Positions 11,383 through 48,226 of a DNA stretch of 64,000 bases are shown here, piece by piece (within the stretch, counting starts at the first letter, position 1; each line of letters starts with the position of its first letter). A program made the translations under genes and the position numbers. The stretch is from Gammaproteobacteria bacterium (GTDB lineage Bacteria; Pseudomonadota; Gammaproteobacteria; Steroidobacterales; Steroidobacteraceae). The notes beneath the pieces are model-generated. The model was not told where the DNA came from, ran no database searches, and worked only from the letters and a program-made list of their open reading frames with translations. The DNA lies in NCBI GenBank assembly GCA_025357915.1, contig JANYLH010000044.1, positions 14,390 to 78,389 on the forward strand. The letters are read 5' to 3'.

Positions 11383-11395
11383 AGCGGATTGGCGG

Positions 11396-27010: not shown

Positions 27011-27014
<4 letters not shown>
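26547..27014 (+). CDS. Rrf2 family (SUF/IscR-type) Fe-S cluster assembly regulator
   Basis: [15 protein letters not shown] is an Rrf2 N-terminal HTH. Three clustered Cys follow ([14 protein letters not shown]). It is first in the suf operon, with ATGA overlap with sufB. Confidence 0.85.
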
Positions 27015-29219
<2,205 letters not shown>

Positions 29220-29223
<4 letters not shown>

Positions 29224-32223: not shown

Positions 32224-32225
32224 TC

Positions 32226-32780
32226 ATGGCGGGCTACGAGAACGAACCGGTGGTCTTGAGTCGCGACGTCGAGGCCGTGATCGTCCCGGCCGGCACCGCG
32301 GTGACGCTCAAGGTCGGACTCGCCGGCTACATCACGCAGGCGCTGGGCGGGAGCTTCACGCTCTACATCGAAGGCAACCTCTATCGCATCGCCGGGGAGC
32401 AGGCCGACGCGATCGGCAAGGAGCCGGTCTCGGCGCCCGAACTCCCGCCGGGCGCCACCGAAGAGGACGTGCGCGAACTTGCCTGGGCGCAGATGCGCCG
32501 TTGCTATGACCCGGAAATCCCCGTCAACATCGTCGATCTCGGGCTGGTGTATGGCTGCGCCGTGACGCTGGCGCCGGACGGTACCCGCAAGCTCAGCGTC
32601 AGCATGACCCTCACCGCGCCCGGCTGCGGCATGGGCGAGGTGCTGGTGCGCGACGTGCGCGATAAGCTTGAGATGATTCCGACCGTAAGCGAGGCGGATG
32701 TGCAACTGGTGTTCGATCCGCCCTGGAGCCAGTCGATGATGTCCGAGGCAGCGAGACTACAGACTGGCATGATGTGGTAG
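32226..32780 (+). CDS. sufT: SufT-like Fe-S assembly protein (C-terminal DUF59/MIP18 domain)
   Basis: DPEIPVNIVDLGLVY...LTAPGCGMG is the DUF59 signature. The gene is last in the suf string. Confidence 0.75.
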   Translation: MAGYENEPVVLSRDVEAVIVPAGTAVTLKVGLAGYITQALGGSFTLYIEGNLYRIAGEQADAIGKEPVSAPELPPGATEEDVRELAWAQMRRCYDPEIPVNIVDLGLVYGCAVTLAPDGTRKLSVSMTLTAPGCGMGEVLVRDVRDKLEMIPTVSEADVQLVFDPPWSQSMMSEAARLQTGMMW

Positions 32781-33251: not shown

Positions 33252-34043
33252 ATGAACCGGCCGCACCCCGCTTTGTTCCTGGGTCATGGCTCGCCTCTCC
33301 ATGCGATCGAACCCGGCCGCTACACGGCGGCATGGGAGCAGCTGGGGCGCGAACTGCCGCGGCCACGTGCGATCGTGGCCGTCTCGGCGCACTGGTACAT
33401 CCGCGGCACGGCGGTCACCCTGCCGGCCATGCCCCGTACCATTCACGATTTCCAGGGCTTTCCGTCGGCTCTTTACGCCGTGCAGTACCCCGCGCCCGGT
33501 GACCCGCAGCTCGCCGCGCGCGTGGCCAGGCTCCTCTCGCCGACGCCCGTGCGGCTCGACCATGATTGGGGCCTGGATCACGGCACCTGGTCTGTGCTGC
33601 GCTACCTCTACCCCGATGCCAGCGTCCCCGTCATCCAGCTGTCGATCGATGCCGCATTGCCGGCGCAGCAGCACTACACGCTGGCGCAGCGGCTGGCGCC
33701 GCTCCGCGACGCGCGCATCCTGGTGCTGGGAAGTGGCAATGTGGTGCACAACCTGCGCGCCTTGCAGTTCGACGCGGCGGTGACGCCGCCTTCCTGGGCG
33801 ATCGGATTCAACAAGGCGGTGCGCGACGCGGTACTCGCGGGCCGTGACGAGGACCTGGCCGGCTACCAGACGCTCGATCCAGGCGCCGCACTCAGCGTGC
33901 CCACCCCCGAGCACTACCTGCCGCTGCTCTACGTGCTGGCGCTCCGGCGCGCCGGTGAGGCCGTGAGCGTGCCGATCGATGGGATCGACCTTGGGACCAT
34001 CAGCATGCTGAGTGTGCTGGTTGGCTCCCGGCAACCCGTATGA
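33252..34043 (+). CDS. ygiD: 4,5-DOPA dioxygenase extradiol family protein (YgiD-like)
   Basis: ALFLGHGSPLHAIE...VSAHW...LDHGTWSVL...GSGNVVHNL...EHYLPLLY, which are class III extradiol dioxygenase motifs. Confidence 0.85.
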   Translation: MNRPHPALFLGHGSPLHAIEPGRYTAAWEQLGRELPRPRAIVAVSAHWYIRGTAVTLPAMPRTIHDFQGFPSALYAVQYPAPGDPQLAARVARLLSPTPVRLDHDWGLDHGTWSVLRYLYPDASVPVIQLSIDAALPAQQHYTLAQRLAPLRDARILVLGSGNVVHNLRALQFDAAVTPPSWAIGFNKAVRDAVLAGRDEDLAGYQTLDPGAALSVPTPEHYLPLLYVLALRRAGEAVSVPIDGIDLGTISMLSVLVGSRQPV

Positions 34044-34053
34044 GGACGCTGGC

Positions 34054-36288
34054 ATGAGCGCGCTGCCAGGCCTGCTGCCGCGCCTGTGGCGTTTACGGCC
34101 GGGGCGCCGCTTTCTGCTCCGCCTGCTGCTCTCGGCGCTGCCACTCACGCTGCTGCTGCCGCATGCCTTCGGCCAGCTGCCGATCGGGTTTCTGCAGCGT
34201 TTCGAAAGTTACCTGTACGACGTCCGCGTCCGCTGGACCACGACGCCGGTTCGCGATCCGCGCGTCGTGATCGTCGACATCGACGAGGCGAGCCTCACGG
34301 CCGAGGGCGAGTGGCCGTGGTCGCGCGAGGTCTTCGCCCGACTGGTCGATCGCTTGTTCGACGACTACGGCGTGCGCGCGCTGGGCTTCGACGTCTTTTT
34401 TGCCGACCCGCAGCAGCCGGGTGCGCTCAGACTCCTCGACGAGCTCAGCCGGGGTTCACCGCCCGCGCTCGCCGCGCGCCTGGCCGGACTGCGGCCGCGC
34501 TTCGAGACCGACCGCGTCTTCGCCGAGGCGCTGATCGCCCGCGACACGGTGCTCGGTTACGTCTTCAAGCAGAAACTGCAGCCTGGGGACCGGCCTGAGA
34601 AGGGCCGGCTGCCGCGGGCGCAGCCGCTGTCGATGCCGCCCGGCGCGCGGCTGCTGCAGCCCGCTGGTTACGTCGCGAACCTCGGCGCACTGCAGGAGAA
34701 CGCCGCGGCCGGCGGCTTCTTTGACACCTCGCTGGTGGACGAGGACGGCGTGGTCCGCCGGATGCCCTTGCTCCAGTACTACGGTGGCCGGGTGTACGAG
34801 TCGCTGAGCCTCGCGCTGACGCGCCTGGCCCTGCACTCGCCGCCGCTGTCGCTCGGCATCGACCCGGCCACGGGCGCGTTGCAGGAAATCCATTTCGGCG
34901 AGCGGGTGGTACCGGTGGACCGTGCCGCCGCGGTGCTGGTGCCGTTCCGCGGACCGGTCGGCTCCTTTCCCTATGTATCGGTGACCCAGGTGCTGCACGG
35001 CACCGCGCCCGCAGCCACGCTCAAAGGCGCGATCGTGCTGGTGGGCGCGAGCGCTCCCGGGCTGCTGGACCTGCGTGCGACGCCGGTCGGCAAGGAGTAC
35101 ATCGGTGTGGAAGCGCACGCCAATGTGATCGCAGGGCTGCTGGACGGCACGATCCGTTACGTCCCGACCACGACGCCGTGGATCGAGGCCGGCACGCTGC
35201 TGCTGCTCGCGCTGCTGACCGCTGCGCTGCTGGCGCGTTCGCCACTCGCGGGAGTATTGACGGTCGCGGCGCTCCTCGCAGCGCTGTGCGCTGCCAATCT
35301 GCTCGCCTGGCAGCGCCTCGGAATCGTGCTGCCGCTCGCCTCGAGCCTGAGCTACGTGCTGGTCGCCGCACTGCTGCATCTCAACTACGGCTATTTCTTC
35401 GAGTCGCGCCGCAAGCGACGGCTCGGACGGCTGTTTGGGCAGTACGTCCCGCCAGAGGTCGTGCAGGATCTCGACGCCACCGAGACCGACATTTCGCTGG
35501 CCGGCGAGAGTCGCGTCATGAGCGTGCTGTTCTCGGACGTGCGCGGCTTCACGACCATCTCCGAGGGACTGGACCCGCGCTCGCTGAGCCAGTTCATGAA
35601 CGAGTTCCTGACGCCCATCACGGCCGTGATCCGCCGTCATCACGGCACCATCGACAAATACATGGGCGACGCCGTGATGGCCTTCTGGGGCGCGCCGCTC
35701 GCCGAGCCCGCCCACGCCGCGCGGGCCGTGCGTGCCGCCCTGGACATGGTCGCGTGCCTTGAGGGCGTCAACGCCAGCTGTCGCGCGCGCGGCTGGCCCG
35801 AGATCCGCATCGGCGTGGGCATCAGCTCCGGTCCCATGAACGTGGGCAACATGGGCTCCGAGTTCCGGATGGCCTACACGGTGCTCGGCGATACCGTGAA
35901 CCTGGGTTCACGGCTCGAGGGGCTCACGAAGGAATACGGCGTCGACATCATTGTCAGTGCCGCTACGGCCAGCGCGGTGCCGGAAATGGCTTTCCGGGAA
36001 CTGGACCTCGTGCGCGTCAAGGGCAAGCACGAGGCGATCGCGATCCTGGAGCCGCTCGGGCCGCGCGCCGGGCTGGCGCCCGCGACGCTCATCGCTTGCG
36101 AGGAGTTCACCGCCGTGCTTGTCGCCTACCGCAAGCGCGACTTCGCGGGCGCCGCGACGCGCTTGGCCGCACTGCGCGCACGCACGGATCATCGTCTATA
36201 CGAATTGTACGCGGCGCGGATCAGCGCTTACCTCGAGGCCCCGCCGCCGCCGGAGTGGGACGGAGTCTACACATTCACCAGGAAGTGA
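34054..36288 (+). CDS. CHASE2 sensor domain-containing class III adenylate/guanylate cyclase (adenylyl-type residues)
   Basis: An N-terminal TM is followed by CHASE2 (VVIVDIDEASLTAEGEWPWSREVFARLV) and three TMs. The cyclase domain has LFSDVRGFT, IDKYMGDAVMAFWG and YTVLGDTVNLGSRLE. Confidence 0.85.
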   Translation: MSALPGLLPRLWRLRPGRRFLLRLLLSALPLTLLLPHAFGQLPIGFLQRFESYLYDVRVRWTTTPVRDPRVVIVDIDEASLTAEGEWPWSREVFARLVDRLFDDYGVRALGFDVFFADPQQPGALRLLDELSRGSPPALAARLAGLRPRFETDRVFAEALIARDTVLGYVFKQKLQPGDRPEKGRLPRAQPLSMPPGARLLQPAGYVANLGALQENAAAGGFFDTSLVDEDGVVRRMPLLQYYGGRVYESLSLALTRLALHSPPLSLGIDPATGALQEIHFGERVVPVDRAAAVLVPFRGPVGSFPYVSVTQVLHGTAPAATLKGAIVLVGASAPGLLDLRATPVGKEYIGVEAHANVIAGLLDGTIRYVPTTTPWIEAGTLLLLALLTAALLARSPLAGVLTVAALLAALCAANLLAWQRLGIVLPLASSLSYVLVAALLHLNYGYFFESRRKRRLGRLFGQYVPPEVVQDLDATETDISLAGESRVMSVLFSDVRGFTTISEGLDPRSLSQFMNEFLTPITAVIRRHHGTIDKYMGDAVMAFWGAPLAEPAHAARAVRAALDMVACLEGVNASCRARGWPEIRIGVGISSGPMNVGNMGSEFRMAYTVLGDTVNLGSRLEGLTKEYGVDIIVSAATASAVPEMAFRELDLVRVKGKHEAIAILEPLGPRAGLAPATLIACEEFTAVLVAYRKRDFAGAATRLAALRARTDHRLYELYAARISAYLEAPPPPEWDGVYTFTRK

Positions 36289-36440
36289 GCTCGGGCGCGC
36301 ACCGACAGGGGCGCCCGGTTGCGATGAAAAACCTGCTGGCGCAAGATACGCCGTCTGCGCGGGCTTTCGGGCGGATGCTGGTCGAGCGTTGCGGCGTGCT
36401 GCAGCGACGGGCGGCGACAATCACTTGATCCGGGAGTCAA

Positions 36441-37784
36441 ATGCAGCCATCACCTCGCCGGCGCCGTAGCTGCTTCGCCTGCGCCGTATTCACCCTGATG
36501 GCAATGACGGGACTGGCCCGTGCCACTGCGCCCACCGACCTCGACCTGCTCCTGGCGCAGTGCCAGTCGCAGCTCGACGCTGGCCACAGCGCCGACGCCT
36601 ACTCCCTGCTTTCGGCACATGAAGCGGAATTCGGCGGCCTCGCCGCCTTCGACTACCTCTACGGCATGGCGGCGCTCGACAGCGGCCACGCTTCCGAGGC
36701 CGGCTTTGCCCTGGCCCGCGTGGTGGCGATCGAGCCTGACTTCGACGGCGCGCGCATGGAACTGGCCCGCGCCTACTACGCGAGTGGCGACTACGAGTCG
36801 GCCCGCACCCAGTTTGCCTTCTTGCGCGAGCGCAGCCCACCGGCGCCCGCGCGCGCGCTCATCGATCGCTACCTTGCCGCCATCGACGACCATGTGGCCG
36901 TCTTGCGCCCGCGCCTGGTACTGAATTTCGATGGCGGCGGCGGCTACGACTCCAACGCCAATGGCTCGACCGCCGACCGGCAATTTCTCGGGTTCAATCT
37001 CGACGCCCGCAATGTGGCTGCCTCGACCGCGTTTGCCGATGCGACCTTCAGCGCGAGCTACGTGCGCCCGCAGGGGCGCCGCCTCGGCTGGACGGGCGAT
37101 CTGGCCGCGAACCAGCGCTGGAACCCCGGCGCTCACTTCGTTGACCAGTCGCTCCTGTCCGGCGCGCTGGCACTGGCCGGGCGGTTCGGCGAATGGCGGA
37201 CCGCGCTCGGCGTCAACGGCTATTGGGCCGCGCTGGATGGCGCTGGCCACGAGTGGAGCGGCAACGTGCAGGCGCGGGCGACGCATCCGATGGGCGCGCA
37301 CTGGTCTGCGACCAGCAGCGTCTCGTACGGCGCGCTGCGCTACCTGGATGAACGCCTCAGCCTGCTGGAGGTCAACCGCTTGCTCGGGAGCGTGCGGATC
37401 GACCGCGGCGGCCTCGCCGCCGGCGGCATCCTCTCAGTGACGCTGCTCGCGGGCCATGACAACGCGCAACAGGTCAGTTCACCGTATGGGGGTGCCCGCT
37501 ACGGCGCGCGCGCCTCTTATGCCTGGCAGGCGGGGCCGCGCGTCCGCGCGGTCGTCGACGCTGGCGGCCTGCGCAGCCGCTACGCGGGTGGTGCCGGTTT
37601 CTTCGGCCTCGCACGGCGCGATACCCAGTACTCGGCGCTGGTGCTGCTCGACATCGACGGCGCGCCGGCCGCGGGCTGGCACGTACAGCCGCGCCTGCGC
37701 TACACGCAGAACGACTCCAATGTTTCGCTCTACGCCTACGATCGCTGGGAAGCCGGCATTTTCCTGCACCGGACCTTTCACTAG
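36441..37784 (+). CDS. TPR + C-terminal beta-barrel outer-membrane protein, Slam/DUF560 (type XI secretion)-like
   Basis: A signal peptide is followed by a TPR-like N-terminal region of about 130 aa. The remaining roughly 300 aa are Gly/Asn/Tyr/Arg-rich with alternating-pattern segments. The size (447 aa) and architecture match Slam proteins. Family assignment is by pattern only. Confidence 0.5.
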   Translation: MQPSPRRRRSCFACAVFTLMAMTGLARATAPTDLDLLLAQCQSQLDAGHSADAYSLLSAHEAEFGGLAAFDYLYGMAALDSGHASEAGFALARVVAIEPDFDGARMELARAYYASGDYESARTQFAFLRERSPPAPARALIDRYLAAIDDHVAVLRPRLVLNFDGGGGYDSNANGSTADRQFLGFNLDARNVAASTAFADATFSASYVRPQGRRLGWTGDLAANQRWNPGAHFVDQSLLSGALALAGRFGEWRTALGVNGYWAALDGAGHEWSGNVQARATHPMGAHWSATSSVSYGALRYLDERLSLLEVNRLLGSVRIDRGGLAAGGILSVTLLAGHDNAQQVSSPYGGARYGARASYAWQAGPRVRAVVDAGGLRSRYAGGAGFFGLARRDTQYSALVLLDIDGAPAAGWHVQPRLRYTQNDSNVSLYAYDRWEAGIFLHRTFH

Positions 37785-37801
37785 CCTCCACGGGAATCCT
37801 C

Positions 37802-39442
37802 ATGAGCGCACGCACCTGTCGCCGCACCGACCGCCGCCTCCAGATCCTGCTCAGGGTCATGGCGCTGCTCGCCTTCAGCCCCTGCGCGCTTGCCGCGCAG
37901 GCGGGCAAGATCGTATTCGTGGCCGGCAACGTAACGCTGGAGGCGAGCCACCGCCCGCTCCAGCGCGGCGACACACTCAACACCGGCGACACGGTCGTGA
38001 CTGCGGCGGGCGCCCGCGCGCAGCTCTTGATGGGCGACGGCGCGCGGATTGCACTGCGTTCGGGGTCGCGCTTTCGTATCGATGCGTTCGAGCTTGGCGC
38101 CGCGGTCAGGAACCCGGCGGCCACGGCGGTCGCGGCCTCGACCGGGCGGAGCCTGAGCACGCTGCTCAGCGGTGGTTTTCACACCGCCTCAGGCAGCATT
38201 GGCAAGGCAGATCCGTCCGCGTACGAGGTGCGCGTGCCGGTCGGCACGCTCGGCATCCGCGGCACCGACTACGTAGCGGTGTACTGCCGCAGCGATTGTA
38301 CCGATGCGCCAGGACTGAAGCCCGGTGAACCGGTAAGAGACGGCCTGTACCTTGGCGTCTACTCCGGCAGCATCGTGTTTCGCGGCGGTGACCTTGAAGT
38401 CGTGGTCGCGGCGGGCGAGTTCGTGTTCATACCGGTGCCCGAACTCAAACCCGAACGGCTCCAGCTGCCACCGGCGCCGATAGTCGGCGACGGTGCCGGA
38501 CCACTCGACCTGGCAGGCGCCACCGCGGGCGTGCAGGCGCGCCCCGCCGGCAAGCACTCGGGTTTCGGTGATTCCGGCGGGGGTCATGGCCCGGCTTCCC
38601 CCGTCACGGAGCCGCCGCCGCCAGCCAACGGCACGGTCCAGCCGGTGGGCGGATCGGTGAACGGCGTGCCGATCGATCTGACGCCGGGCCAGCTGCCCAC
38701 ACGCAACGATTCCACCTGGATAACCGGCCCGGTGCGCGGCCTGTTCAGTCCCGGCAGCAACGCCGCGGCCACGACGCAGTATGGCTTTGGCGGTACAGGC
38801 GGCGGCGCCACCGTGCTGCCCGTGCTGGGCGATGCGGGGGCCGCTTTGCTGCAGATCGGCACAGCCACCGCCAGCGAGTCGGGGTTCGATGCCGCGACCG
38901 GACTGCGCTGGGGTCGCTGGAGCGGCGGCAGCGTCAACCTCGTCACCGCAACCGGCGGCAGCGTGCCGGTGCCGCTCGGGAGCGACAGCGTGCACTGGGT
39001 TGCCGGAAGCGGCTACGTCGATGCTGCCATCCCGGTGCTGCCGGTCAGCGGCACGGCGACTTACAACCTCGCAGGCGCCACCCGCCCGACCGACGGCCTG
39101 GGCAACCTCGGCACACTCAACAGCCTTAAGCTGACCGCCGACTTCAGCGCGAACGCAGTGACCGCAGCCCTGGCGCTGACCATCGCCAACGTGGACTGGA
39201 TCGCCAGCGGCAACGGCTTCATCCTCGCGGGCTCGAAGACGACTGGCCCACAGTTCAACGGCGCGTTCGGCGCGCCCTCGATAGGCGGCTCCACGCAATT
39301 GGGCGGTGGCGGCCAGTTCAGCGGCTTCTTCAGCAATGTGCCCGGACAGGTATCGGGCGCGCCTGGCGCAGCCGGCATCTCCTATACCCTGTTCGCGCCA
39401 GGGGCTGGCACTGTATCGGGTGCAGCGGCACTCAGCCGATGA
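37802..39442 (+). CDS. secreted FecR-domain protein with TbpB/fHbp-like C-terminal 8-strand-barrel motif (candidate Slam cargo)
   Basis: It has a signal peptide and a FecR domain (GKIVFVAGNVTLEASHRPLQRGDTLNTGDTVVTAAGARAQLLMGDGARIALRSGSRFRI). The C-terminus reads GTATYNLAG...LTADFSANAVTAAL...GQFSGFF...GAAGISYTLF, like TbpB-type barrel domains. Confidence 0.6.
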   Translation: MSARTCRRTDRRLQILLRVMALLAFSPCALAAQAGKIVFVAGNVTLEASHRPLQRGDTLNTGDTVVTAAGARAQLLMGDGARIALRSGSRFRIDAFELGAAVRNPAATAVAASTGRSLSTLLSGGFHTASGSIGKADPSAYEVRVPVGTLGIRGTDYVAVYCRSDCTDAPGLKPGEPVRDGLYLGVYSGSIVFRGGDLEVVVAAGEFVFIPVPELKPERLQLPPAPIVGDGAGPLDLAGATAGVQARPAGKHSGFGDSGGGHGPASPVTEPPPPANGTVQPVGGSVNGVPIDLTPGQLPTRNDSTWITGPVRGLFSPGSNAAATTQYGFGGTGGGATVLPVLGDAGAALLQIGTATASESGFDAATGLRWGRWSGGSVNLVTATGGSVPVPLGSDSVHWVAGSGYVDAAIPVLPVSGTATYNLAGATRPTDGLGNLGTLNSLKLTADFSANAVTAALALTIANVDWIASGNGFILAGSKTTGPQFNGAFGAPSIGGSTQLGGGGQFSGFFSNVPGQVSGAPGAAGISYTLFAPGAGTVSGAAALSR

Positions 39443-39452
39443 GCCCGCGCCA

Positions 39453-41861
39453 TTGCTGACCGAGCGCGTCTCGATCGCAGTGATCGGCGCCGGCCCGGCC
39501 GGCCTTTCGGCCGCGGCCCACGCCGCCGACCTTGGCATCCCGCACCTGCTGCTCGAGGCGAGTCCGGGTCACGCCAACACCATCCGTAAATACCAGAAGG
39601 GCAAGCACGTCATGGCCGAGCCAGGGGCGCTGCCGCTGCGCAGCCCCCTGCCGTTTGCGGCCGCGGTCCGTGAGGCCGTGCTCGAGGGCTGGGACGCCGG
39701 ACTCGCGGCGCATCGCGTCAATGTCCGCTACGGCGCCGAGGCGGTCGCCATCAGCGGCTCGCGCCCGCAATTCCAGATCGCGTTGAAGGATGGCAGCGTG
39801 GTCCACGCCGAGTGCGTCGTGCTTGCAATCGGCGTGCAGGGAAATCCGCGCAAGTTGGGCGTGTCCGGCGAAGACCTGGCTTGCGTGCAATACCAGCTCG
39901 ACGATGCCGACGCCTATCGCGACGAGGCCATCGTCGTCGTCGGCGCCGGCGATGCCGCGATCGAGAACGCGCTGGCGCTGTCGAAGCGTAACCGCGTCTG
40001 CCTGGTGAACCGTGCCGCCGAGTTCTCGCGCGCCAAGGAAGGCAACCTGAGCGCGGTGCTCAAGGCAATCGAAGCCGGCACGCTCAGCTGCTTCTTCAAG
40101 AGCTCCTGTGCGCGCATCGAGGCCAGTGCCGGCGCGCAGCGAGGTTATCGCCTGACGCTCGACACCGATACCGGCGAGGCCAGCGTCGCGTGCGACCGGA
40201 TCATCGCCCGGCTCGGGGCCATCCCGCCGCGGCAATTTCTCGAGGCCTGCGGTGTCGGGTTCCCGGGGCCGCAGCCGACCGCGCTGCCTATCCTGTCCGA
40301 CCAGTACGAGTCGAGCGTGCCCGGGCTGTACGTGGTCGGTGCGCTCGCTGGCTATCCGCTGATCAAGCAGGCGATGAACCAGGGCTATGAGGCGGTCGAG
40401 TACAGCCGCGGGCGCGCTGTGGAGCCGGCCGACGAGCCGATCCTGCGCGAGCGGTTCGCACCGCTCCCCTTCGGCCTGACGGTCGCCGGCACGCTGGCGT
40501 TGATCCGCGAGCGCGTGCCGCTGTTCGCGGAGGTGAACCCGTTGCTGCTGCGCGAGCTGGTGCTGGGCAGCGAAGTCCACGCACCCGCGTCCGGCACCGT
40601 GCTGTTCCGCAAGAACGACTACACCAATTCGTTTTACACGATCATAAATGGCGGCGTCGACATGGAACTCGGCGACGAGGGCCAGCAACGCATAGCACTG
40701 CGCCAGGGTCAGTTCTTCGGCGAGGGGAGTCTGCTGTCCGGCCGTCGGCGCGCCGGCAGCGCGCTGGCCGGCGCCGGCTGCGTGGTGCTGGAGACGCCGC
40801 GCCGCGAGATCCTCAAGCTCATGAGCTCGGTCGACGGGGTCCGGCGCGTGGTCGACGAGCTGTTCATCATCCGCGCGATCCAGTCAAGCTTCGCGACCGA
40901 CGCCTCCTTCGACGAACTGCGCACGGTCGCCGCCGGCGCGCGGCTCAACCGCTACCGGCCGGGCGAGATGCTGTTCGAGGAAGGCGCGGTCGCCGACTGC
41001 CTGCACCTGGTGCGGAGCGGTTCGGTCGCGGTATTGCGCCAGCTCGGCGGGCGCGACGTCGTTACGTCGTATGTTGCCGCGGGCAACTATGTCGGCGAGA
41101 TCGGCCTGCTGGGCCGCACGCGGCGTACGGCGAGCGTGCGGGCGAACGTCGCCACCGAGACCGTGAGCATTGACGCCGCCGCCTTCGACCAGCTGCTGGC
41201 GCGCAACGCGGCGCTGCGCGAGCGCATCCAGGACACCATCCGTGAGCGGCTGGCCGCGAACGCGCGCATGCAGGGCCAGACCCAGGCGGGCGACCTGATC
41301 TCGTTTCTGATGCAGCAGGGCCTGGGGGAGGCCACCGACGTGCTGCTGATCAACGAGTCGCTGTGCGTGGGCTGCGACAACTGCGAGAAGGCCTGCGCCG
41401 AAACGCACGGCGGCACCTCGCGCCTCGACCGCGGGGCCGGGCCGAGCTTCGCGCAGGTGCACGTACCCACCTCCTGCCGGCACTGCGAGGACCCGCACTG
41501 CATGACCGATTGCCCGCCGGACGCGATCCGGCGCGCACCGGACGGCGAGGTGTACATCCGCGACAACTGCATCGGCTGCGGCAACTGCGAGCGCAACTGC
41601 CCGTACGGCGTGATCCAGATGGCCGCCGCGACGCCTGCCAAGCCCCCGCTGCTGGCGTGGCTGCTGTTGGGAAGCGGTCCCGGGCCCGGCGGCGTGGCCG
41701 GCGCGCCCGCCGACCCGCAAGCCGCGAAGAAGGCCGTGAAATGCGACATGTGCAAGGACCTGGGCGGCGGCCCCGCCTGCGTCCGCGCCTGCCCGACGGG
41801 CGCCGCGATCCGCATCAGTCCCGAGCGCTTCGTCGAGCTCGCCCATGGCAGCGATGTCTAG
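39453..41861 (+). CDS. fusion protein: FAD/NAD(P)-binding oxidoreductase + two cyclic-nucleotide-binding domains + four-cluster [4Fe-4S] ferredoxin (DmsB/NrfC-like)
   Basis: VIGAGPAGLSAA (FAD), VVVGAGDAAIENA (NAD(P)) and GLYVVGALAG are present. The cNMP motifs are FFGEGSLL... and YVGEIGLLGRTRRTASVRA. The Cys motifs are CVGCDNCEKAC, CRHCEDPHCMTDCP, CIGCGNCERNCP and CDMCKDLGGGPACVRACP. The start (TTG 39453) is inferred and uncertain. Confidence 0.8.
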   Translation: MLTERVSIAVIGAGPAGLSAAAHAADLGIPHLLLEASPGHANTIRKYQKGKHVMAEPGALPLRSPLPFAAAVREAVLEGWDAGLAAHRVNVRYGAEAVAISGSRPQFQIALKDGSVVHAECVVLAIGVQGNPRKLGVSGEDLACVQYQLDDADAYRDEAIVVVGAGDAAIENALALSKRNRVCLVNRAAEFSRAKEGNLSAVLKAIEAGTLSCFFKSSCARIEASAGAQRGYRLTLDTDTGEASVACDRIIARLGAIPPRQFLEACGVGFPGPQPTALPILSDQYESSVPGLYVVGALAGYPLIKQAMNQGYEAVEYSRGRAVEPADEPILRERFAPLPFGLTVAGTLALIRERVPLFAEVNPLLLRELVLGSEVHAPASGTVLFRKNDYTNSFYTIINGGVDMELGDEGQQRIALRQGQFFGEGSLLSGRRRAGSALAGAGCVVLETPRREILKLMSSVDGVRRVVDELFIIRAIQSSFATDASFDELRTVAAGARLNRYRPGEMLFEEGAVADCLHLVRSGSVAVLRQLGGRDVVTSYVAAGNYVGEIGLLGRTRRTASVRANVATETVSIDAAAFDQLLARNAALRERIQDTIRERLAANARMQGQTQAGDLISFLMQQGLGEATDVLLINESLCVGCDNCEKACAETHGGTSRLDRGAGPSFAQVHVPTSCRHCEDPHCMTDCPPDAIRRAPDGEVYIRDNCIGCGNCERNCPYGVIQMAAATPAKPPLLAWLLLGSGPGPGGVAGAPADPQAAKKAVKCDMCKDLGGGPACVRACPTGAAIRISPERFVELAHGSDV

Positions 41862-42744
41862 CATTCACGAGTCGGCCCTCGCCTACCGCGGGCGCCGCTA
41901 CCTGTGGGTCGCGCTGGCACTGACGGCAGCCTCCGTGCTCGCCTACGCGTGGCACTCGCCAGCCGTACCGCCGAACGGCGGCACCTGGCTGGGCTATACG
42001 CTGGGCACGGTCGCCGCGCTACTGATCCTGTTGCTGCTGGCGCTCGGCATCCGCAAGCGCAGCTACCACTCGACGCTCGGCACCGTCAGCGGCTGGGTAT
42101 CGGCGCACGTATACCTGGGGCTGGCACTGGTCGTGGTGGCCACGCTTCACACCGGGTTTCACTTCGGCCGCAACGTGCACACGCTCGCCTACGTGCTGAT
42201 GTGTCTGGTCATCGCACTGGGCATCGTCGGCGTCGTGCTGTACGCGCGCTACCCGGCCCGCATGAGCGTCAACCGCCAGGGGCGCGCACGCGCGCAACTC
42301 GTGGAAGAGGTCAACGATCTCAATGCCCGCGCACTGCGCGTCGCGCAACCGCTGCCCGCGGAATTCCTGGCGGCGGTGCGCAGCGCGCGCGACCGGCTGG
42401 TGCTCGGCGGCAACGCCTGGACGCTGCTCACCGGCCGCGACCGCTCCCGCGTCGTGCTGCCAGGGAGCGACGGCGCCAGCGCGCCGCTCGCCAACCCCTT
42501 TCAGGCGACGCTGATCGCCTGGCTTGGCGACCGCCTCGCGCGCTGCCAGGACGGCGAGGTGGCGCCGCGCATTCAGAGCCTGCTCACGCTCATCAGCGCC
42601 CAGCGGGTCGCAATCGAGCGCCTCAAACGCGACCTCGCCTTCCAGGCGCGGCTCGACGCCTGGCTGTATTTGCACGTGCCGTTGTCCTTCGCGTTGCTGG
42701 CCGCGCTCCTGGCGCATGTCGTCAGCGTGTTCCTGTACTGGTAA
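41845..42744 (+). CDS. integral membrane protein with two HX13H motifs (putative di-haem b, ferric-reductase/NOX-like transmembrane electron carrier)
   Basis: About five hydrophobic helices by eye. His88/His102 sit in helix 3 and His277/His291 in the last helix, each pair separated by exactly 13 residues. It overlaps the upstream gene by 17 nt. Confidence 0.7.
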   Translation: MAAMSSIHESALAYRGRRYLWVALALTAASVLAYAWHSPAVPPNGGTWLGYTLGTVAALLILLLLALGIRKRSYHSTLGTVSGWVSAHVYLGLALVVVATLHTGFHFGRNVHTLAYVLMCLVIALGIVGVVLYARYPARMSVNRQGRARAQLVEEVNDLNARALRVAQPLPAEFLAAVRSARDRLVLGGNAWTLLTGRDRSRVVLPGSDGASAPLANPFQATLIAWLGDRLARCQDGEVAPRIQSLLTLISAQRVAIERLKRDLAFQARLDAWLYLHVPLSFALLAALLAHVVSVFLYW

Positions 42745-42754
42745 GGCCTGCGCC

Positions 42755-44464
42755 GTGCGTACCCTGATCCGCTTCGTCAGCCGCGCCACAGGCGGTGCCG
42801 TCGAGACCAGCGAGCGGCTCTTCGATGGCGAGGCGCTCACTCTCGGCCGCGCCACCGACCAGGTGCTGCAGTTCAAGGACGGACGTGTGGCATTCCAGCA
42901 CGCGCGGATCTTCCGGCGGGGCAGCCGCGTGCTGCTCGCCTGCCGCGCGCCGGCGACCGTCATCGTCAACGACGCATTGGTGCGCGAGGCGGAGTTGTCG
43001 CTGGGCGACGTACTGCGTCTGGGCGCAAACGTACTCACGCTCATCGAGCCGCCCGCCGGCGCCGATCTCGCGCTGACCTTCGAGCTCGATCCGGCTGCGT
43101 CCGAGGCGGAACTCGCGACGGTCAATGCACCGCTCCTGCTCTCGGGCGGGCGGCTCGGCAAGCGCGGCTGGTCCTGGCTGCTGTTTCTCACACTGCTGGG
43201 CGCGTTCCTCGTGCTGCCGGTATTGGTGTTGCCTGCGAAGTCCACCCGCGAGGCGCTGCGCGCGAGCTGGCTGCCGAGCGATCACGCCTATTCGCCCGGC
43301 GCGCTGCACTCGGTGCACCAGACGATCGGCGGTCGCTGCGAGGCGTGCCACCAGCAGGCCTTCGTCCGGGTACGCAACGAGGCGTGCCTCGCCTGCCACG
43401 CGACGGAACTGCATCGGCACGTCGACGCGGGCAGCCCACGGGCGCGTGCAGTGGAGCAGATGCGCTGCCTTGCCTGCCATTCCGGCCACGAACCCGCGCC
43501 GTTGCTGCGCAGCGGCTCCGGCGGCTGCGTCGCTTGCCACGCTGACGTCTCGCTCGCCGGCGACCCGCACCGCCTCGGTGCCGTCAGCGACTTCGGTCGC
43601 GCGCACCCGGAGTTCCGCGTCACCTTGCTGCGCCCGGACGCCGCCGGCATCGCTGGCGCGAGTGAGCGGGCGCGCCTCGATGCGCCCGCGCTGCGCGAGC
43701 ACTCGCACCTCAAGTTCTCGCACGCGCAGCACCTCGATCCGCGGGGAGTCAAGACGCTGGACGGGCGCCGGGTGCTCGGCTGTGCCGATTGCCACGTGCC
43801 CGAGCCCGGCGGCGGGCGCATGTTGCCGATCCGCATGGCGGCGCACTGCCAGAGCTGCCACCGGCTCGACTTTGACCCGGCGTTCCCGGACCGCCAGCTG
43901 CCGCACGGCGATGTGACCGGGGCGGTGAACACGCTGTTCGAATACTACAGCGCACGCTACCTGGAGGGCTGGCCGGATCCGAACGCGCGAGCGTCCGCCG
44001 GGCGCTTCGCGGCGACGCCTGGACCCGCGCTGGCACCGGCCGAGCGTGAGCGCCGGCTCGGCCTCGCACGCACGCGCGCCGCAGTGGTCGCGCGTGACCT
44101 CATCGAGCGGCGCGCCTGCGTCGTGTGTCATGAAGTACGCGTGGTCGCGGACGCGGCGCTGCGCTGGCAGGTCACGGCAGTACGGCTCACGCACGCCTGG
44201 TTCCCGGCTGCGCGGTTCGATCACGCGCAGCACACCACTACGCTGACGCCGTGCTCCTCGTGCCACGACGCGGCACATTCCACACAGTCCGCGGACGTGC
44301 TCATGCCACGCATCGCGACCTGCCGTCGCTGTCACGCGGGGAGCGGCGGCGCGGCGCCGCCCGCCGGCAAGGTGGCGACCGGATGTCCGGCCTGCCATGC
44401 GTTCCACGACCCGCGGCGCGCGCCCTGGGTTCCGGTGGCGCAGCCAACGGATCCGGGACGGTGA
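42755..44464 (+). CDS. FHA domain - single TM - decahaem c-type cytochrome (cytochrome c3/c7-like)
   Basis: An N-terminal FHA-like fold (LTLGRATDQVLQFKDGRVAFQHARI...VIVNDALV...LSLGDVLRLGANVL) is followed by a TM (WSWLLFLTLLGAFLVLPVLVLPA). Ten CXXCH motifs follow: CEACH, CLACH x2, CVACH, CADCH, CQSCH, CVVCH, CSSCH, CRRCH and CPACH. GTG start at 42755. Confidence 0.85.
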   Translation: MRTLIRFVSRATGGAVETSERLFDGEALTLGRATDQVLQFKDGRVAFQHARIFRRGSRVLLACRAPATVIVNDALVREAELSLGDVLRLGANVLTLIEPPAGADLALTFELDPAASEAELATVNAPLLLSGGRLGKRGWSWLLFLTLLGAFLVLPVLVLPAKSTREALRASWLPSDHAYSPGALHSVHQTIGGRCEACHQQAFVRVRNEACLACHATELHRHVDAGSPRARAVEQMRCLACHSGHEPAPLLRSGSGGCVACHADVSLAGDPHRLGAVSDFGRAHPEFRVTLLRPDAAGIAGASERARLDAPALREHSHLKFSHAQHLDPRGVKTLDGRRVLGCADCHVPEPGGGRMLPIRMAAHCQSCHRLDFDPAFPDRQLPHGDVTGAVNTLFEYYSARYLEGWPDPNARASAGRFAATPGPALAPAERERRLGLARTRAAVVARDLIERRACVVCHEVRVVADAALRWQVTAVRLTHAWFPAARFDHAQHTTTLTPCSSCHDAAHSTQSADVLMPRIATCRRCHAGSGGAAPPAGKVATGCPACHAFHDPRRAPWVPVAQPTDPGR

Positions 44465-46434
44465 AGCGCGCATCGGCCTGTCTCGCTCCACTGGCGGCGC
44501 TGACGTTGTCGGCCTGTGGCGGTGGGGGCGAAGTCGCTTCGGGTGTGCCCACAAGCCCGCCGCCCCCGGGCCTGGTCTGTACCGGCCAGTGCGCGAATGC
44601 CCTCACGCTGCTGTCGCAGGCGGACGTGGAGCGCACGATCGCGCAGGCGGTCGCCGAGGCGCAGGCCCGCGGCGCGCACGCCACCGTCGCGGTTGTCGAC
44701 CGCGTTGGCAACGTGCTCGGTGTGTTCCGCATGAATGGCGCGGCGAATACCGTCACGATCGGGTCGGGACTGGCCACAGGCGGTCTCGAGAACGTCACGA
44801 TTGTCCCTGACACAGTCGCGGCCATCGCCAAGGCCGTGACGGCGGCATACCTGTCGAGCGAAGGCAATGCGTTCTCGACCCGCACAGCGAGTCAGATCGT
44901 GCAGGAGCATTTCAATCCGGGCGTAGCGCTGGCGCCGGGCGGTCCGCTGTTCGGCGTGCAGTTCAGCCAGCTGCCCTGCTCCGATCTGATGGCGCGGGCG
45001 GGAGCCGCGCCCGCCCCTGGCCCGCAGCGCTCGCCGCTGGGCCTCGCGGCGGATCCGGGTGGCCTGCCGCTCTACAAGGCCGGCACGCCGGTGGGCGGCG
45101 TGGGCGTAATCGCCGATGGCCGCTACGGGCTGGATCGCAACGTGCTCGACACGGACGTGGATCTGGACGAAACGATCGCGCTCGCCGCGACCTTTGGGCT
45201 CGCGGCGCCCGACGATCGCCGCGCCGACCGGATCACGGCTGATGGCAGGACGCTGCGTTTCAGCGATGCGACGGTGGCGACGCTCGCCAGTGCGCCCGCT
45301 GCTGCGCCGTCATTCGCGTCCCTGGACGGCGTCGCGGGTCACCTGCTTGCAGTGCCCGGCTACGGCGCAGCGACGACGCGCGCGGGCCTCGCGTATGGCA
45401 CGAGCGCCTCGGGCATCCGCTCCGATGCCAGCGACTACCCGGGACTCGACGCGCAGGTGCTGGTGGACGCGAGCGATGCGCCCCGCTATCCGCCGCGCGC
45501 CGGCAGCGAAACCTCGGGTGCACTGAGTGCGACCGAAGTGCGCGAGATCCTGCGCGCGGCACTCGGCGTGGCGAACCGCACCCGCGCCCAGATCCGCCTG
45601 CCGCTTGGCTCGCAGGCGCGCGTCACCGTCAGCGTCGTCGACAGTCAGGGTGTAGTCCTCGGAATAGCCGCTATGCGCGACGCACCGGTATTCGGCGTCG
45701 ACGTCTCGCTGCAAAAGGCGCGCTCGAGCGCGTTCACGAGCTCGGCGGCCGCGGCCGCGGCACTCGCGGCTGCGCCCGATGCGGTCTATCTCGACGGTGG
45801 ACTGAGTGTGCTCGCGCGGGTGCCACTGGCCAGCTACGTGACGGCGACGCGCGCATTCCTGGGGTTGCCAGCAGCGCTCGGCGACGGCGGCGTCGCCTTC
45901 AGCGCGCGCGCGCTGGGCAACATGGCGCGACCGTTCTATCCCGACGGCGTCGACGGCACCCATGCCGGACCCTGGTCCAGGCCGGCCGCGGCGTGGAGCC
46001 CGTTCAGCACCGGCTTACAGCTGGATCTGGTTTATAACGCCCTGGTGCAGCATGTCGCCTTCGTGCTTGGCGCGGCACCCGACGTGGGCTTCAGTTGCAC
46101 CGGTGTCAGCGGCTTTGACACCGGCTTTGCTCCCGCCGCGCCCATCCCGGCGCTCGCCAATGGCCTGCAGATCTTTCCGGGCGGCGTGCCGATCTATCGG
46201 GACCACACGCTGGTCGGCGCGATCGGCGTGTCAGGCGATGGCGTCGACCAGGATGACATGATCGGCTTCCTGGGCGTCGATAGCGCCGCGCAACGCCTCG
46301 GCGGCTTCGGCAATGCGCCGCCCGACCTGCGCAGCGACACGCTGGTGCCGCGCGGCGCGCGCTTGCGCTATGTCGGCTGCCCGGTGGCACCGTTCCTCGA
46401 CTCGTCGACGCAGGACGAGTGCAGTGGCCGCTAG
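44461..46434 (+). CDS. lipoprotein with two GlcG/HbpS-like (DUF336, haem-binding/degrading fold) domains
   Basis: A lipobox (LTLSAC). Domain 1 reads LSQADVERTIAQAVAEAQARGAHATVAVVDRVGNVLGVF...GGLPLYKAGTPVGGVGV. Domain 2 reads VTVSVVDSQGVVLGIAAM...GGVPIYRDHTLVGAIGVSGDGVDQDDMI. GTGA overlap with the upstream stop. Confidence 0.7.
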   Translation: MKRASACLAPLAALTLSACGGGGEVASGVPTSPPPPGLVCTGQCANALTLLSQADVERTIAQAVAEAQARGAHATVAVVDRVGNVLGVFRMNGAANTVTIGSGLATGGLENVTIVPDTVAAIAKAVTAAYLSSEGNAFSTRTASQIVQEHFNPGVALAPGGPLFGVQFSQLPCSDLMARAGAAPAPGPQRSPLGLAADPGGLPLYKAGTPVGGVGVIADGRYGLDRNVLDTDVDLDETIALAATFGLAAPDDRRADRITADGRTLRFSDATVATLASAPAAAPSFASLDGVAGHLLAVPGYGAATTRAGLAYGTSASGIRSDASDYPGLDAQVLVDASDAPRYPPRAGSETSGALSATEVREILRAALGVANRTRAQIRLPLGSQARVTVSVVDSQGVVLGIAAMRDAPVFGVDVSLQKARSSAFTSSAAAAAALAAAPDAVYLDGGLSVLARVPLASYVTATRAFLGLPAALGDGGVAFSARALGNMARPFYPDGVDGTHAGPWSRPAAAWSPFSTGLQLDLVYNALVQHVAFVLGAAPDVGFSCTGVSGFDTGFAPAAPIPALANGLQIFPGGVPIYRDHTLVGAIGVSGDGVDQDDMIGFLGVDSAAQRLGGFGNAPPDLRSDTLVPRGARLRYVGCPVAPFLDSSTQDECSGR

Positions 46435-48226
46435 CGCAACTCGCGCCTGCGCGTGCGCGCTGGCCCTCGCCGGTGCGGGTCTTGCCACCGGCGTGGTCCG
46501 CGCCGGAGACGGGAGCACGACCGCGCCCTGCCCGCCCGAGTCCCCGGTCGCGGCCGAACGCAAGGCACCGGCGGTACCCGAGCTGCCCGGCTTCGCGCCC
46601 ACGCCGTGCAATCCGGCCGCGCTACCCCCACCGCGCGCGGACCAGCCGGGGACGCTCGCCGGGCTCCCGGATCGCTGGCGCATGGTCTCGACGCTGGGGT
46701 ACCCCGAGCGGCTCCACGACCCCTACCACGGCAACAACTGGTTGAAGGGCGATCGCCCGGCGTTCGGTGCTGACTGGTTCGTCAACCTCGCGGCGGTCGC
46801 GGATACCGTCGTCGAGCCCAGGCGCTTCCCGCTGCCAGTCGGCAACGTCGTCACCGAACGCCCGGGGAGCCTCGACGCCTACGGGCACGGCGCGAGCCAG
46901 CTCTATGCCCAGACCCTCGCCTTCGAGGCCGTCCTCTATCAGGGCGATACCGTATTCAAGCCGCCGGAGTGGGAGTTTCGCCTCACGCCCGTCTTCAGCG
47001 TCAATCGTGTCGAGGTAGGCGAGCGCGGCCTGGTGAACGCCGCCGCAGGCGCGCCGCTGTCGCGCACCGACACGGCGCTCGGGCTGCAGGCGGCGTTCGT
47101 CGATCGCCATCTGCGCAATGTTTCCGCGCACTACGATTTCGACAGCCTGCGCGTCGGCATCCAGCCGGTGACCGCGGACTTCCGCGGCTTCCTCTACACG
47201 GATGCGGCGCTAGGCGTGCGGCTGTCTGGCAACCGGGCCAACAATCGCTACCAGTACAACTTGGGTTGGTTCCGTCGCCTGGAGAAGGACACCAATTCCG
47301 GACTCAACGACGTGTTCGCTCGTGGCCTCGCCTCACTGCGCCATGACAGCGTAGTGCTCGCCAACCTGTACGCGCAGGACACGCCACTGCCCGGTTTCAC
47401 CTCGCAACTGGTGGTGGCGTACAACCGCAACCGGGAAGGCGGCGAACTACGCTACGACGGCAACGGCGCGCTGCAGCGTCCGGCGCAAATCGGTGATGGC
47501 CGCGGCCGCGACTACCAGGTGACCTACCTCGGCGTCAACGGCGATGGCCATGTCGGCGTGCTCAACGCGACCATTGCCGGCTACTTCGTATTCGGGCACG
47601 AATCGCGCGGCACCTTCGCCGCCGCCGCAGACCAGGTGCGCGCCTTCTTCGCAGCCGCCGAAGTGTCGCGCGACTGGGACTGGCTACGGGTCCGCGCTTC
47701 GATCGCGCTGCAGAGCGCCGATCACGATCCATTCGACCGGCGTGCCACCGGGTTCGATGCGATTGTAGAGAACCCGTTGTTCGCCGGCGCCGATACCAGT
47801 TTCTGGATCCGTCAGCCGGTGCCACTGATTGCCGGCGGCGGCGTATCACTGTCGGGTCGCAACGGCCTGCTCAGCTCGTTGCGCTCCTCGAAGGAATTCG
47901 GCCAGTCCAACTTCACCAACCCGGGACTGCAGCTGGTTGGCGTCGGCGCCGACGCGGACCTCACGCCGACGCTGCGGGTCAGCGCGAACGCCAACGACCT
48001 GCGCTTTGGCGACACGGCGGTGCTCGAGGTGGCGCGCGCGCAGGCATCGATCCCAAGACGCATCGGGCTCGACCTCTCGCTCGCGCTCAGCTGGCGTCCC
48101 CTCGCCACGCAGAACGTGGTCGCACGCCTGTCGGCCGCGAAGCTGCTGCCGGGCAGCGGCTGGAAAACGCTTTATGGCGGCGAGCAGGGCTATTCCATTC
48201 TCGGCAACCTGATACTGAGCTACTGA
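46424..48226 (+). CDS. putative outer-membrane beta-barrel protein (unassigned family)
   Basis: A signal peptide (ACACALALAGAGLATGVVRAGD). It contains abundant alternating aromatic/polar stretches such as YQYNLGWFRRLEKD, YQVTYLGVNGDGHVGVLNATIAGYFVFG and LDLSLALSWRPL. The C-terminus is aromatic (NLILSY). The GTG start at 46424 overlaps the upstream gene. Confidence 0.55.
   Translation: MAASATRACACALALAGAGLATGVVRAGDGSTTAPCPPESPVAAERKAPAVPELPGFAPTPCNPAALPPPRADQPGTLAGLPDRWRMVSTLGYPERLHDPYHGNNWLKGDRPAFGADWFVNLAAVADTVVEPRRFPLPVGNVVTERPGSLDAYGHGASQLYAQTLAFEAVLYQGDTVFKPPEWEFRLTPVFSVNRVEVGERGLVNAAAGAPLSRTDTALGLQAAFVDRHLRNVSAHYDFDSLRVGIQPVTADFRGFLYTDAALGVRLSGNRANNRYQYNLGWFRRLEKDTNSGLNDVFARGLASLRHDSVVLANLYAQDTPLPGFTSQLVVAYNRNREGGELRYDGNGALQRPAQIGDGRGRDYQVTYLGVNGDGHVGVLNATIAGYFVFGHESRGTFAAAADQVRAFFAAAEVSRDWDWLRVRASIALQSADHDPFDRRATGFDAIVENPLFAGADTSFWIRQPVPLIAGGGVSLSGRNGLLSSLRSSKEFGQSNFTNPGLQLVGVGADADLTPTLRVSANANDLRFGDTAVLEVARAQASIPRRIGLDLSLALSWRPLATQNVVARLSAAKLLPGSGWKTLYGGEQGYSILGNLILSY

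Follow-up and report, generated by a model that had tools for sequence, protein, structure and literature searches.

A flavin reductase, tandem cyclic nucleotide-binding and polyferredoxin fusion protein at the head of a multihaem cytochrome operon: a possible signal-regulated entry point for electrons

In a 64,000-nucleotide stretch from a member of the Steroidobacteraceae (Gammaproteobacteria; GenBank assembly GCA_025357915.1, contig JANYLH010000044.1, positions 14,390 to 78,389 of the forward strand; this whole stretch is referred to as the window), a single gene at 39453..41861 on the plus strand encodes an 802 amino acid (aa) protein, read from a TTG start, in which a flavin adenine dinucleotide (FAD)/NAD(P)H reductase domain, two cyclic nucleotide-binding (CNB) domains and a 4x[4Fe-4S]-type ferredoxin domain are joined. 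As the gene heads a conserved operon for a putative membrane cytochrome b and multihaem cytochromes, the fusion protein may be a signal-regulated entry point of an envelope-crossing electron pathway. The reading preferred here, to which a probability of about 55 % is given, is that the operon encodes an electron conduit across the envelope and that the fusion protein is the cytoplasmic NAD(P)H input to it, with the CNB tandem acting as a cyclic AMP (cAMP)-responsive regulator.

Architecture and distribution of the fusion protein

The maximal open reading frame (ORF) of the fusion gene, 39306..41861 on the plus strand, is uninterrupted (G+C content of the window, ~69 %). The TTG start at 39453 lies 10 nt past the stop of an upstream FecR-domain ORF and is supported by the homologues, which are 790–820 aa in length and align from residue 1–8. 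The deposited protein P0001 is the same product (100 % identity, same length of 802 aa). That several genes had been misread as one ORF was ruled out by the lack of internal stops, the identity of P0001 over 802 aa and the presence of a single ORF in at least 593 genomes.

A Pfam scan places Pyr_redox_3/Pyr_redox_2 at aa 7–311, cNMP_binding (PF00027) in two stretches, with 114.2 bits against a gathering cut-off of 27.5, and several 4Fe-4S dicluster families across aa ~630–790. These matches bear out the original prediction, made from the DNA letters and their translation, of a flavoprotein, a CNB tandem and a four-cluster ferredoxin in one polypeptide, and all of the motifs that it quoted are present. 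We lean towards regarding the product as a cytoplasmic flavo-iron-sulfur protein, predicted to be loaded with both kinds of cofactor. An AlphaFold2 model of the full protein, based on a 51-sequence alignment, represents the FAD and CNB parts well.

The same prediction called the fusion unusual, which does not stand if rarity is meant. A word-indexed protein search returned 6576 homologues at E<=1e-10, the best 120 of which are all full length, and a scan of species genomes gave at least 593 confirmed relatives. Carriers among the matches listed are mostly Gammaproteobacteria (Steroidobacteraceae, Woeseiaceae, Lysobacterales, Alcanivorax, Cognaticolwellia and Pseudomarimonas), together with Burkholderiales and some Alphaproteobacteria. 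Cultured strains among them include Pseudomarimonas arenosa CAU 1598, Tahibacter soli BL, Cognaticolwellia sediminilitoris KCTC 52213 and Alcanivorax sp. 1008. In an exhaustive search of representatives clustered at 50 % identity, the full architecture is kept down to ~35 % identity. Homologues bear generic names, namely 'cyclic nucleotide-binding domain-containing protein' or '4Fe-4S dicluster domain-containing protein'.

The two C-terminal modules also occur by themselves. Stand-alone (split) forms of 446–481 aa, composed of two CNB domains and the four-motif ferredoxin, are 32–35 % identical to aa ~350–797 of the fusion protein, and all of them keep 16 Cys residues and, in both CNB domains, the Glu/Arg pair described below. 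In eight of the 10 informative metagenome loci, the gene after the split form encodes a homologue of the membrane protein that neighbours the fusion protein in the window, with a 10–11-haem cytochrome adjoining. In one split-form locus, a different flavoprotein (Fer4 plus Glu_synthase FMN domain) is encoded directly upstream. We conclude that the CNB tandem travels with the iron-sulfur (Fe-S) wire. A rare form without CNB domains, in which the FAD domain is joined straight to the Fe-S domain, is represented by P0285, with a second example in P0430. P0285 was ruled out as a substitute for the fusion protein in conduit operons, since it is an orphan paralogue.

The FAD/NAD(P)H domain, aa 1–335 (39453..40457), was assigned to the thioredoxin reductase (TrxR) fold from Pfam, from profile and Foldseek matches and from invariant motifs. 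Its two dinucleotide-binding motifs, GAGPAG (aa 12–17) and GAGDAA (aa 164–169), were seen in the translation as first described, and a search of the first 340 aa for CxxC found none, as had also been stated. The closest PDB matches, at 16–23 % identity, are YpdA/Bdr (7a7b and 7a76) and TrxR-type ferredoxin-NADP+ reductases (FNRs; 2zbw, 3ab1, 6gar and 3lzw), the best fold match in Foldseek being YpdA/Bdr. In alignments with 7a76 and 7a7b, the position of the Bdr Cys (GGGPCGL) is occupied by Ala (GAGPAGL). Neither named NCBIfam cut-off is reached, with 105.7 bits against 339.9 for YpdA/Bdr (TIGR04018) and 59.9 bits against 343.45 for thioredoxin-disulfide reductase (TIGR01292). From the lack of CxxC, the Ala in place of the Bdr Cys and scores so far under the cut-offs, the module is taken to be a TrxR-fold flavoprotein of the FNR-like, non-disulfide kind. 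Some hallmarks of TrxR-type FNRs are present, namely a two-Rossmann TrxR fold that lacks a redox disulfide and has invariant glycine motifs for FAD and NAD(P)H. Another hallmark of these reductases is a C-terminal extension with an aromatic residue stacked on the FAD; in the fusion protein, the sequence past aa ~320 runs on into the linker to the CNB domains. The earlier view of an enzyme resembling ferredoxin reductases or YpdA rather than a true TrxR thus holds, and a TrxR or Bdr disulfide reductase was ruled out, because the catalytic cysteines of both are missing. In the 2zbw NADPH motif HRRxxFRA, the arginines, which are the 2'-phosphate arginines of TrxR-like proteins, have R187 and R193 as their aligned counterparts; this suggests that NADPH is the substrate.

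The Fe-S domain, a four-motif polyferredoxin of aa 631–802 (41343..41858), is preceded by a conserved linker, LISFLMQQGLGEATDVLLI. Its 16 Cys residues are arranged as C638/641/644/648, C675/678/683/687, C706/709/712/716 and C764/767/776/780, giving the pattern CX2CX2CX3C, CX2CX4CX3CP, CX2CX2CX3CP and CX2CX8CX3CP, which is the order of HycB/HydN/DmsB/NrfC-type proteins. The four DmsB/NrfC/HybA-type motifs of the original prediction are therefore present. The best profile matches of aa 631–800 are the four-cluster proteins HycB3, HycB and ArrB, and DmsB is also among the matches. The cut-offs of the named equivalogs are not reached (DmsB 57.3 vs 214, HydN 54.2 vs 260, AegA 68.7 vs 1003, NrfC 41.7 vs 378, HybA 38.8 vs 263). 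Neither the 16 Cys residues nor the FAD/NAD(P)H glycines vary among 51 homologues at 61–89 % identity, and the same holds for 37 divergent full-length representatives at 35–55 % identity.

Between these redox modules, the CNB tandem aligns in profile searches to the regulatory subunits of PKA and to PKG across aa ~346–592. CNB domain 1 (aa ~345–470; 40485..40862) has the phosphate-binding cassette FFGEGSLLSGRRRAGSA, with E424 and R433, and CNB domain 2 (aa ~475–605; 40875..41267) has the cassette GEIGLLGRTRRTASVRA, with E549 and R558. Both Glu/Arg pairs are invariant in the 51 homologues and are kept in nine of nine split forms. The second cassette had been described as canonical, which it is, and the first as degenerate, which overstates the case, because the family consensus of the first domain is canonical (FFGEMSLLSGRRRSATV) and Glu424 and Arg433 are retained.

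The operon and its putative membrane cytochrome

The fusion gene is the first of a tightly packed, conserved operon, the junctions of which are overlaps of 17 nt and 4 nt or gaps of 7–11 nt. Synteny was assessed by tblastn of the window proteins against 80 related loci, many of the loci without partners ending at contig ends. The conserved order is fusion protein, membrane protein, FHA-cytochrome, a protein with three HbpS-like domains (HbpSx3), a ~600-aa protein and a 10-haem protein, and it holds across classes. In 65 of the 80 loci the membrane protein is encoded beside the fusion gene; the FHA-cytochrome occurs in 66 loci, HbpSx3 in 56, the 10-haem cytochrome with LVIVD repeats in 52 and the ~600-aa protein in 51.

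Directly downstream, at 41845..42744 (plus strand), with a start that overlaps the end of the fusion gene by 17 nt, is the gene for a 299-aa protein with five transmembrane (TM) helices, whose homologues are annotated as hypothetical throughout. H88, H102, H112, H277 and H291 are invariant in 62 sequences, with H88/H102 and H277/H291 forming two Hx13H pairs; these four are likewise invariant in a set of 40 sequences, and all lie on predicted TM helices. The AlphaFold model (predicted local distance difference test, pLDDT, 81) shows a soluble insert of ~100 aa (aa 137–238) in addition to the five TM helices. Under the positive-inside rule the insert is predicted to be cytoplasmic, given R70-K71-R72, the Arg-rich N-terminus and the Arg-rich insert itself, and this topology would place H88 and H277 near the cytoplasmic face and H102 and H291 near the periplasmic face. 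Of the 40 members, 22 match PF01292 (prokaryotic cytochrome b561, Ni_hydr_CYTB) at E<=0.01, weakly, with a best value of 9e-6. The window protein itself matches only DUF4405 and Ferric_reduct (E 0.004), both under cut-off, and a profile search of the PDB gave no match for it. We regard it as a putative divergent dihaem cytochrome b that would carry electrons across the inner membrane, a distant relative of the cytochrome b561/FdnI family. The original prediction had added that DmsB-type modules dock on a membrane anchor, and the conserved gene for this candidate partner, next to that for the Fe-S module in most loci, is in keeping with it.

The next gene, 42755..44464 (plus strand), encodes a 569-aa protein from a GTG start, with an FHA domain, a single TM segment and a decahaem cytochrome c (10 CXXCH motifs). 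It is followed at 44461..46434 (plus strand) by a putative lipoprotein with the lipobox LSAC and three HbpS-like domains (GlcG-type, haem-degrading-type). A conserved protein of ~600 aa (unk637), with a signal-peptide-like N-terminus and a C-terminus ending in LSY, is encoded at 46424..48226 (plus strand), its start being uncertain (46313, 46370 or 46424). By analogy with PtdB of the ptd operon considered below, it may be an outer-membrane porin. At 48234..51974 (plus strand) is the gene for a secreted cytochrome of 1246 aa that carries 10 CXXCH motifs and has an LVIVD-repeat beta-propeller in its C-terminal part. A PDB sequence search with the ~600-aa and 1246-aa proteins gave no match, and the former also matched no Pfam family. 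The last gene of the operon, 51971..53272 (plus strand), encodes a Cytochrome_C554-like protein of ~433 aa with four CXXCH motifs. Promoter and terminator scans over 33–60 kb gave matches at chance level within coding regions, so the end of the operon was placed at the strand switch to an SppA-type peptidase gene on the minus strand.

Upstream, on the plus strand, is a trio of genes for a CHASE2 sensor joined to a class III nucleotide cyclase (34012..36288; motifs FSDVRGFT, IDKYMGDAVMA and YTVLGDTVNLGSRLE), a TPR-containing secreted protein (36441..37784) and the FecR-domain protein (37802..39442) whose stop codon precedes the fusion-gene start. The Lys/Thr pair of the cyclase is presumably of the class IIIb adenylate-cyclase-like kind. 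The trio is found upstream in the closest relatives only, and the cyclase was ruled out as a universal partner of the fusion gene.

Direction of electron flow and role of the CNB tandem

What we infer for cofactor loading, the direction of electron flow, docking, and cyclic nucleotide binding and its effect can be set out as a sequence of steps. NAD(P)H, probably NADPH, would reduce FAD in the TrxR-fold domain, which would act like a TrxR-type FNR and not like a disulfide reductase. Single electrons would then run down the four [4Fe-4S] clusters of the C-terminal domain, which would dock on the cytoplasmic face of the 5-TM protein, and two bis-His b-haems (H88 with H277 on the cytoplasmic side, H102 with H291 on the periplasmic side) would move them through the inner membrane. 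The membrane-anchored decahaem cytochrome would take them up next, followed by the HbpS-like lipoprotein, the putative porin and the 10-haem propeller cytochrome. The CNB insert, which is PKA-R-like, would bind a cyclic nucleotide, probably cAMP from the co-located CHASE2 cyclase, and the binding of this cyclic nucleoside monophosphate (cNMP) would change the contact of FAD with the Fe-S clusters, or the docking on the membrane partner, and so tune electron export.

Gating of electron flow by cNMP through the CNB tandem is plausible from the sequences: the phosphate-binding cassettes are invariant in the clade and in split forms, a class III cyclase is encoded in the same gene string, and there are rare natural FAD-FeS forms without CNB domains. 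The ability to bind cNMP is probably ancestral in the family and retained in the fusion protein studied, while being dispensable in some lineages. In the full proposal, a second messenger gates a respiratory-type electron wire: cAMP from the CHASE2 envelope sensor would bind to the CNB tandem and switch on or off the export of electrons from cytoplasmic NAD(P)H, across a dihaem membrane cytochrome of a new class, to multihaem cytochromes that are FHA-anchored or lie farther out. This proposal is tentative, and we would put it at rather less than even odds.

Several observations weigh against the preferred reading. Both Glu/Arg pairs are kept in 16 of the 37 divergent full-length representatives, one pair in 12 and neither in nine, so that 21 of the 37 lack one or both of the cNMP-contacting pairs, and regulation by cNMP cannot therefore be family-wide. 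Among the 49 loci for which 5.5 kb or more of sequence upstream was available, only seven have a cyclase near the fusion gene, and in five of these seven it is syntenic. The CNB-less P0285 is an orphan gene outside any conduit operon. The Pfam matches of the membrane partner are under curated cut-offs, and Foldseek of its model against the PDB returned nothing significant (best E 0.67). In the AlphaFold2 model of the fusion protein, pLDDT is 30–45 across aa 606–800, the Fe-S region, and for this reason the FAD-to-FeS and docking geometry is not usable. Thermodynamic reasoning is the sole basis for the direction of electron flow. Finally, literature searches found no experimental work on the fusion family.

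The strongest alternative, which we consider improbable though deserving of weight, is that the CNB tandem senses no cNMP at all and serves as a spacer, a dimerization scaffold or a site for another ligand, electron flow being constitutive or controlled elsewhere, for example by the FHA domain of the cytochrome. The 21 divergent representatives without one or both Glu/Arg pairs still keep the domain and the 16 Cys residues, linkage to a cyclase is clade-specific, and CNB folds of the CRP/FNR family are known to bind non-nucleotide ligands. A mere spacer would not, however, be expected to have two canonical cassettes that are invariant in 51 clade members and in every split form, and the cyclase gene string stops only 10 nt before the fusion gene.

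A second alternative keeps the same complex and reverses it. Electrons from a periplasmic or extracellular donor, such as Fe(II) or reduced humics, would first enter the cytochromes, then the dihaem protein and the Fe-S clusters, and at last reach FAD and reduce NAD(P)+. TrxR-type FNRs are reversible, and in a preprint on Ferrigenium a homologous FHA-multihaem cytochrome was proposed to bring electrons from Fe(II) oxidases inwards. Flow in this direction would nevertheless oppose the membrane potential and run uphill from c- and b-type haems to low-potential [4Fe-4S] clusters and NAD(P)+; the operon encodes no energy-coupling subunit, and most of the carriers listed are heterotrophic Gammaproteobacteria. 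Outward flow is thus favoured on redox and membrane-potential grounds, and we judge the inward route to be unlikely. Far less credible than either is a stand-alone soluble reductase, YpdA/Bdr-like and acting on low-molecular-weight thiol disulfides, or a TrxR, unrelated to the cytochrome genes: although the N-terminal domain finds its best matches, in NCBIfam as in Foldseek, with YpdA/Bdr and TrxR, the scores are far under the family cut-offs, CxxC is missing and Ala replaces the Bdr Cys, the domain is fused to a 16-Cys polyferredoxin, and synteny with the membrane protein and cytochromes spans classes.

Relation to known systems and variant loci

The domain make-up of part of this protein has been noticed once before, in PtdE, and its mechanism was never analysed. 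In the ptdABCDEFG operon, PtdE consists of a CNB and a 4Fe-4S domain, PtdF is a ferric-reductase-like membrane protein and PtdG a periplasmic decahaem cytochrome; a porin and more multihaem cytochromes are also encoded, and the authors propose a porin-cytochrome conduit of unknown function (bioRxiv 10.1101/2023.11.21.568154). Judged from the published description, PtdE, PtdF and PtdG match the window operon in gene order and domain content, and the split-form loci have the same triad of CNB-FeS protein, membrane protein and multihaem cytochrome. In ptd, however, the reductase is described as a separate gene (PtdC), whereas in the window a single polypeptide holds both the FAD/NAD(P)H reductase and the CNB-FeS part. 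The ptd operon has a pentahaem beta-sandwich protein; the window has an FHA domain on its decahaem cytochrome, the HbpSx3 lipoprotein and the 10-haem LVIVD-propeller cytochrome. Two clusters are counted in the ptd preprint, in contrast to the four Cys4 motifs of the fusion protein. In the Ferrigenium preprint, an FHA-nonahaem cytochrome of unknown function adjoins a 5-TM protein and a cytosolic 4Fe-4S protein.

For the reductase module, the nearest comparison is with TrxR-type FNRs (Bacillus subtilis YumC, 3lzw; Chlorobaculum tepidum FNR, 3ab1; Bacillus cereus FNR1/2) and YpdA/Bdr, which have the same CxxC-free two-Rossmann fold. The FNRs also share the proposed logic, in which an iron-sulfur acceptor receives electrons from NAD(P)H by way of FAD. 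The low sequence identity given above sets the window protein apart from both groups, as do the absence of the Bdr catalytic Cys and an acceptor fused in cis beyond a CNB insert of 270 aa. The Fe-S module has its counterparts in FdnH of formate dehydrogenase-N, which docks on the dihaem cytochrome b anchor FdnI, and in HycB/HydN/DmsB-type proteins, with which it shares four CxxCxxCxxxC-type motifs; the adjoining four-His membrane protein is weakly like the FdnI/HyaC b561 family. Unlike FdnH-type subunits, the module is cytoplasmic, is fused to a flavoprotein, has no Tat signal and scores far under the equivalog cut-offs, and, unlike FdnI-type anchors, its membrane partner has an unusual topology of five TM helices plus an insert, with no solved relative.

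The NADPH oxidase and ferric reductase (NOX/FRE) enzymes share the overall design proposed here: electrons from NAD(P)H enter at a cytoplasmic FAD module and cross the membrane over a stacked pair of b-haems with bis-His ligation (Hx13H, on two helices). The window system differs in having a four-cluster wire and a CNB tandem interposed, a TrxR-type and not an FNR-type dehydrogenase, and a membrane part on a separate polypeptide. Fusion of a CNB domain to an enzyme is also seen in the Mycobacterium Pat acetyltransferase, to which there is an NCBIfam match at the level of the CNB domain, and in ATII-TrxR. Each of these has a single CNB domain, which precedes the catalytic domain, and class-II TrxR features are retained in the TrxR fusion. 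ATII-TrxR, a fusion of CNB and TrxR, has been cloned, expressed and assayed (PMC6544261).

Electron conduits of the Mtr, Pcc and Hmc/Dsr types, and NOX, are known. To our knowledge, there is no case of a nucleotide second messenger controlling an electron conduit post-translationally; literature searches found no such post-translational control and no report of a redox enzyme controlled by cNMP. Proteobacteria from soil, sediment, freshwater and the sea carry this family in abundance, its gene heading a conserved multihaem-cytochrome operon. If the CNB tandem does gate the step from FAD to the Fe-S clusters, or from these to haem, this would be a new regulatory principle in electron transport and would tie envelope sensing by CHASE2 to redox output. 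It would also give functions to hypothetical families (the 5-TM four-His protein, the FHA-decahaem cytochrome and the LVIVD-propeller cytochrome) and a testable mechanism for the ptd operon, which has been seen in transcriptomes from oxygen-deficient zones. A signal-controlled trans-envelope conduit would then be widespread in environmental Proteobacteria.

Variation among the loci was also seen. In six Burkholderiales/Usitatibacter loci (L067, L068, L070, L072, L077 and L080), the order is FHA-cytochrome, HbpSx3, ~600-aa protein and 10-haem protein, followed after ~1.4 kb by the fusion gene. In these six, tblastn of the fetched flanks detected no homologue of the membrane protein 3' of the fusion gene, although it may lie farther upstream. 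Contigs L015 and L079, labelled as Klebsiella pneumoniae and Streptomyces metagenome-assembled genomes, carry a complete Steroidobacteraceae-like cluster (56–64 % identity) and are probably mis-binned. Overlong family members are P0251 (1212 aa), P0247 (1110 aa), P0250 (970 aa) and P0258 (1134 aa); in P0251, several hundred additional residues separate the last CNB domain from the FAD domain.

T628 (nt 41334–41336) of the fusion protein lies in the linker GLGEATD(V)L and is conserved in 32 of the 37 divergent fused forms and absent in nine of nine split forms. The FHA domain of the decahaem cytochrome is phosphothreonine-binding and cytoplasmic, and in the two loci checked the cytochromes next to split forms have no FHA domain. 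On this pattern of co-occurrence, the FHA domain may make a phosphothreonine contact with the fusion protein via T628. No kinase gene was seen in the fusion-gene operon.

On the contig that carries P0285 (L094, 1300–8941 on the minus strand and 10001–11659), a set of genes like those of type II secretion systems (T2SSs) and pili (T2SSE, T2SSF, pseudopilins, PilN and T2SSM) separates the orphan FAD-FeS gene from the end of a canonical conduit operon. Surface cytochromes are exported by T2SSs in other bacteria. At a split-form locus (L082, 2499–5096, minus strand), the CNB-FeS cluster adjoins a gene for an 865-aa protein with metallo-beta-lactamase, CNB and hemerythrin domains, which may be a cNMP-linked sensor of O2 or iron, or a phosphodiesterase.

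The trio of CHASE2 cyclase, TPR and FecR genes in the window (34012–39442) resembles gene sets in the literature that pair CHASE2 sensors with FecR-like proteins; here it is arranged head-to-tail with the redox operon. Just upstream of the cyclase and conduit region, on the same strand, is a SUF cluster (26819–32780) comprising genes for SufB, a SufC-like ABC ATPase, SufD, a class-V aminotransferase/SufS and FeS_assembly_P, and a LigB-type dioxygenase gene (33252–34043) lies between this cluster and the cyclase region.

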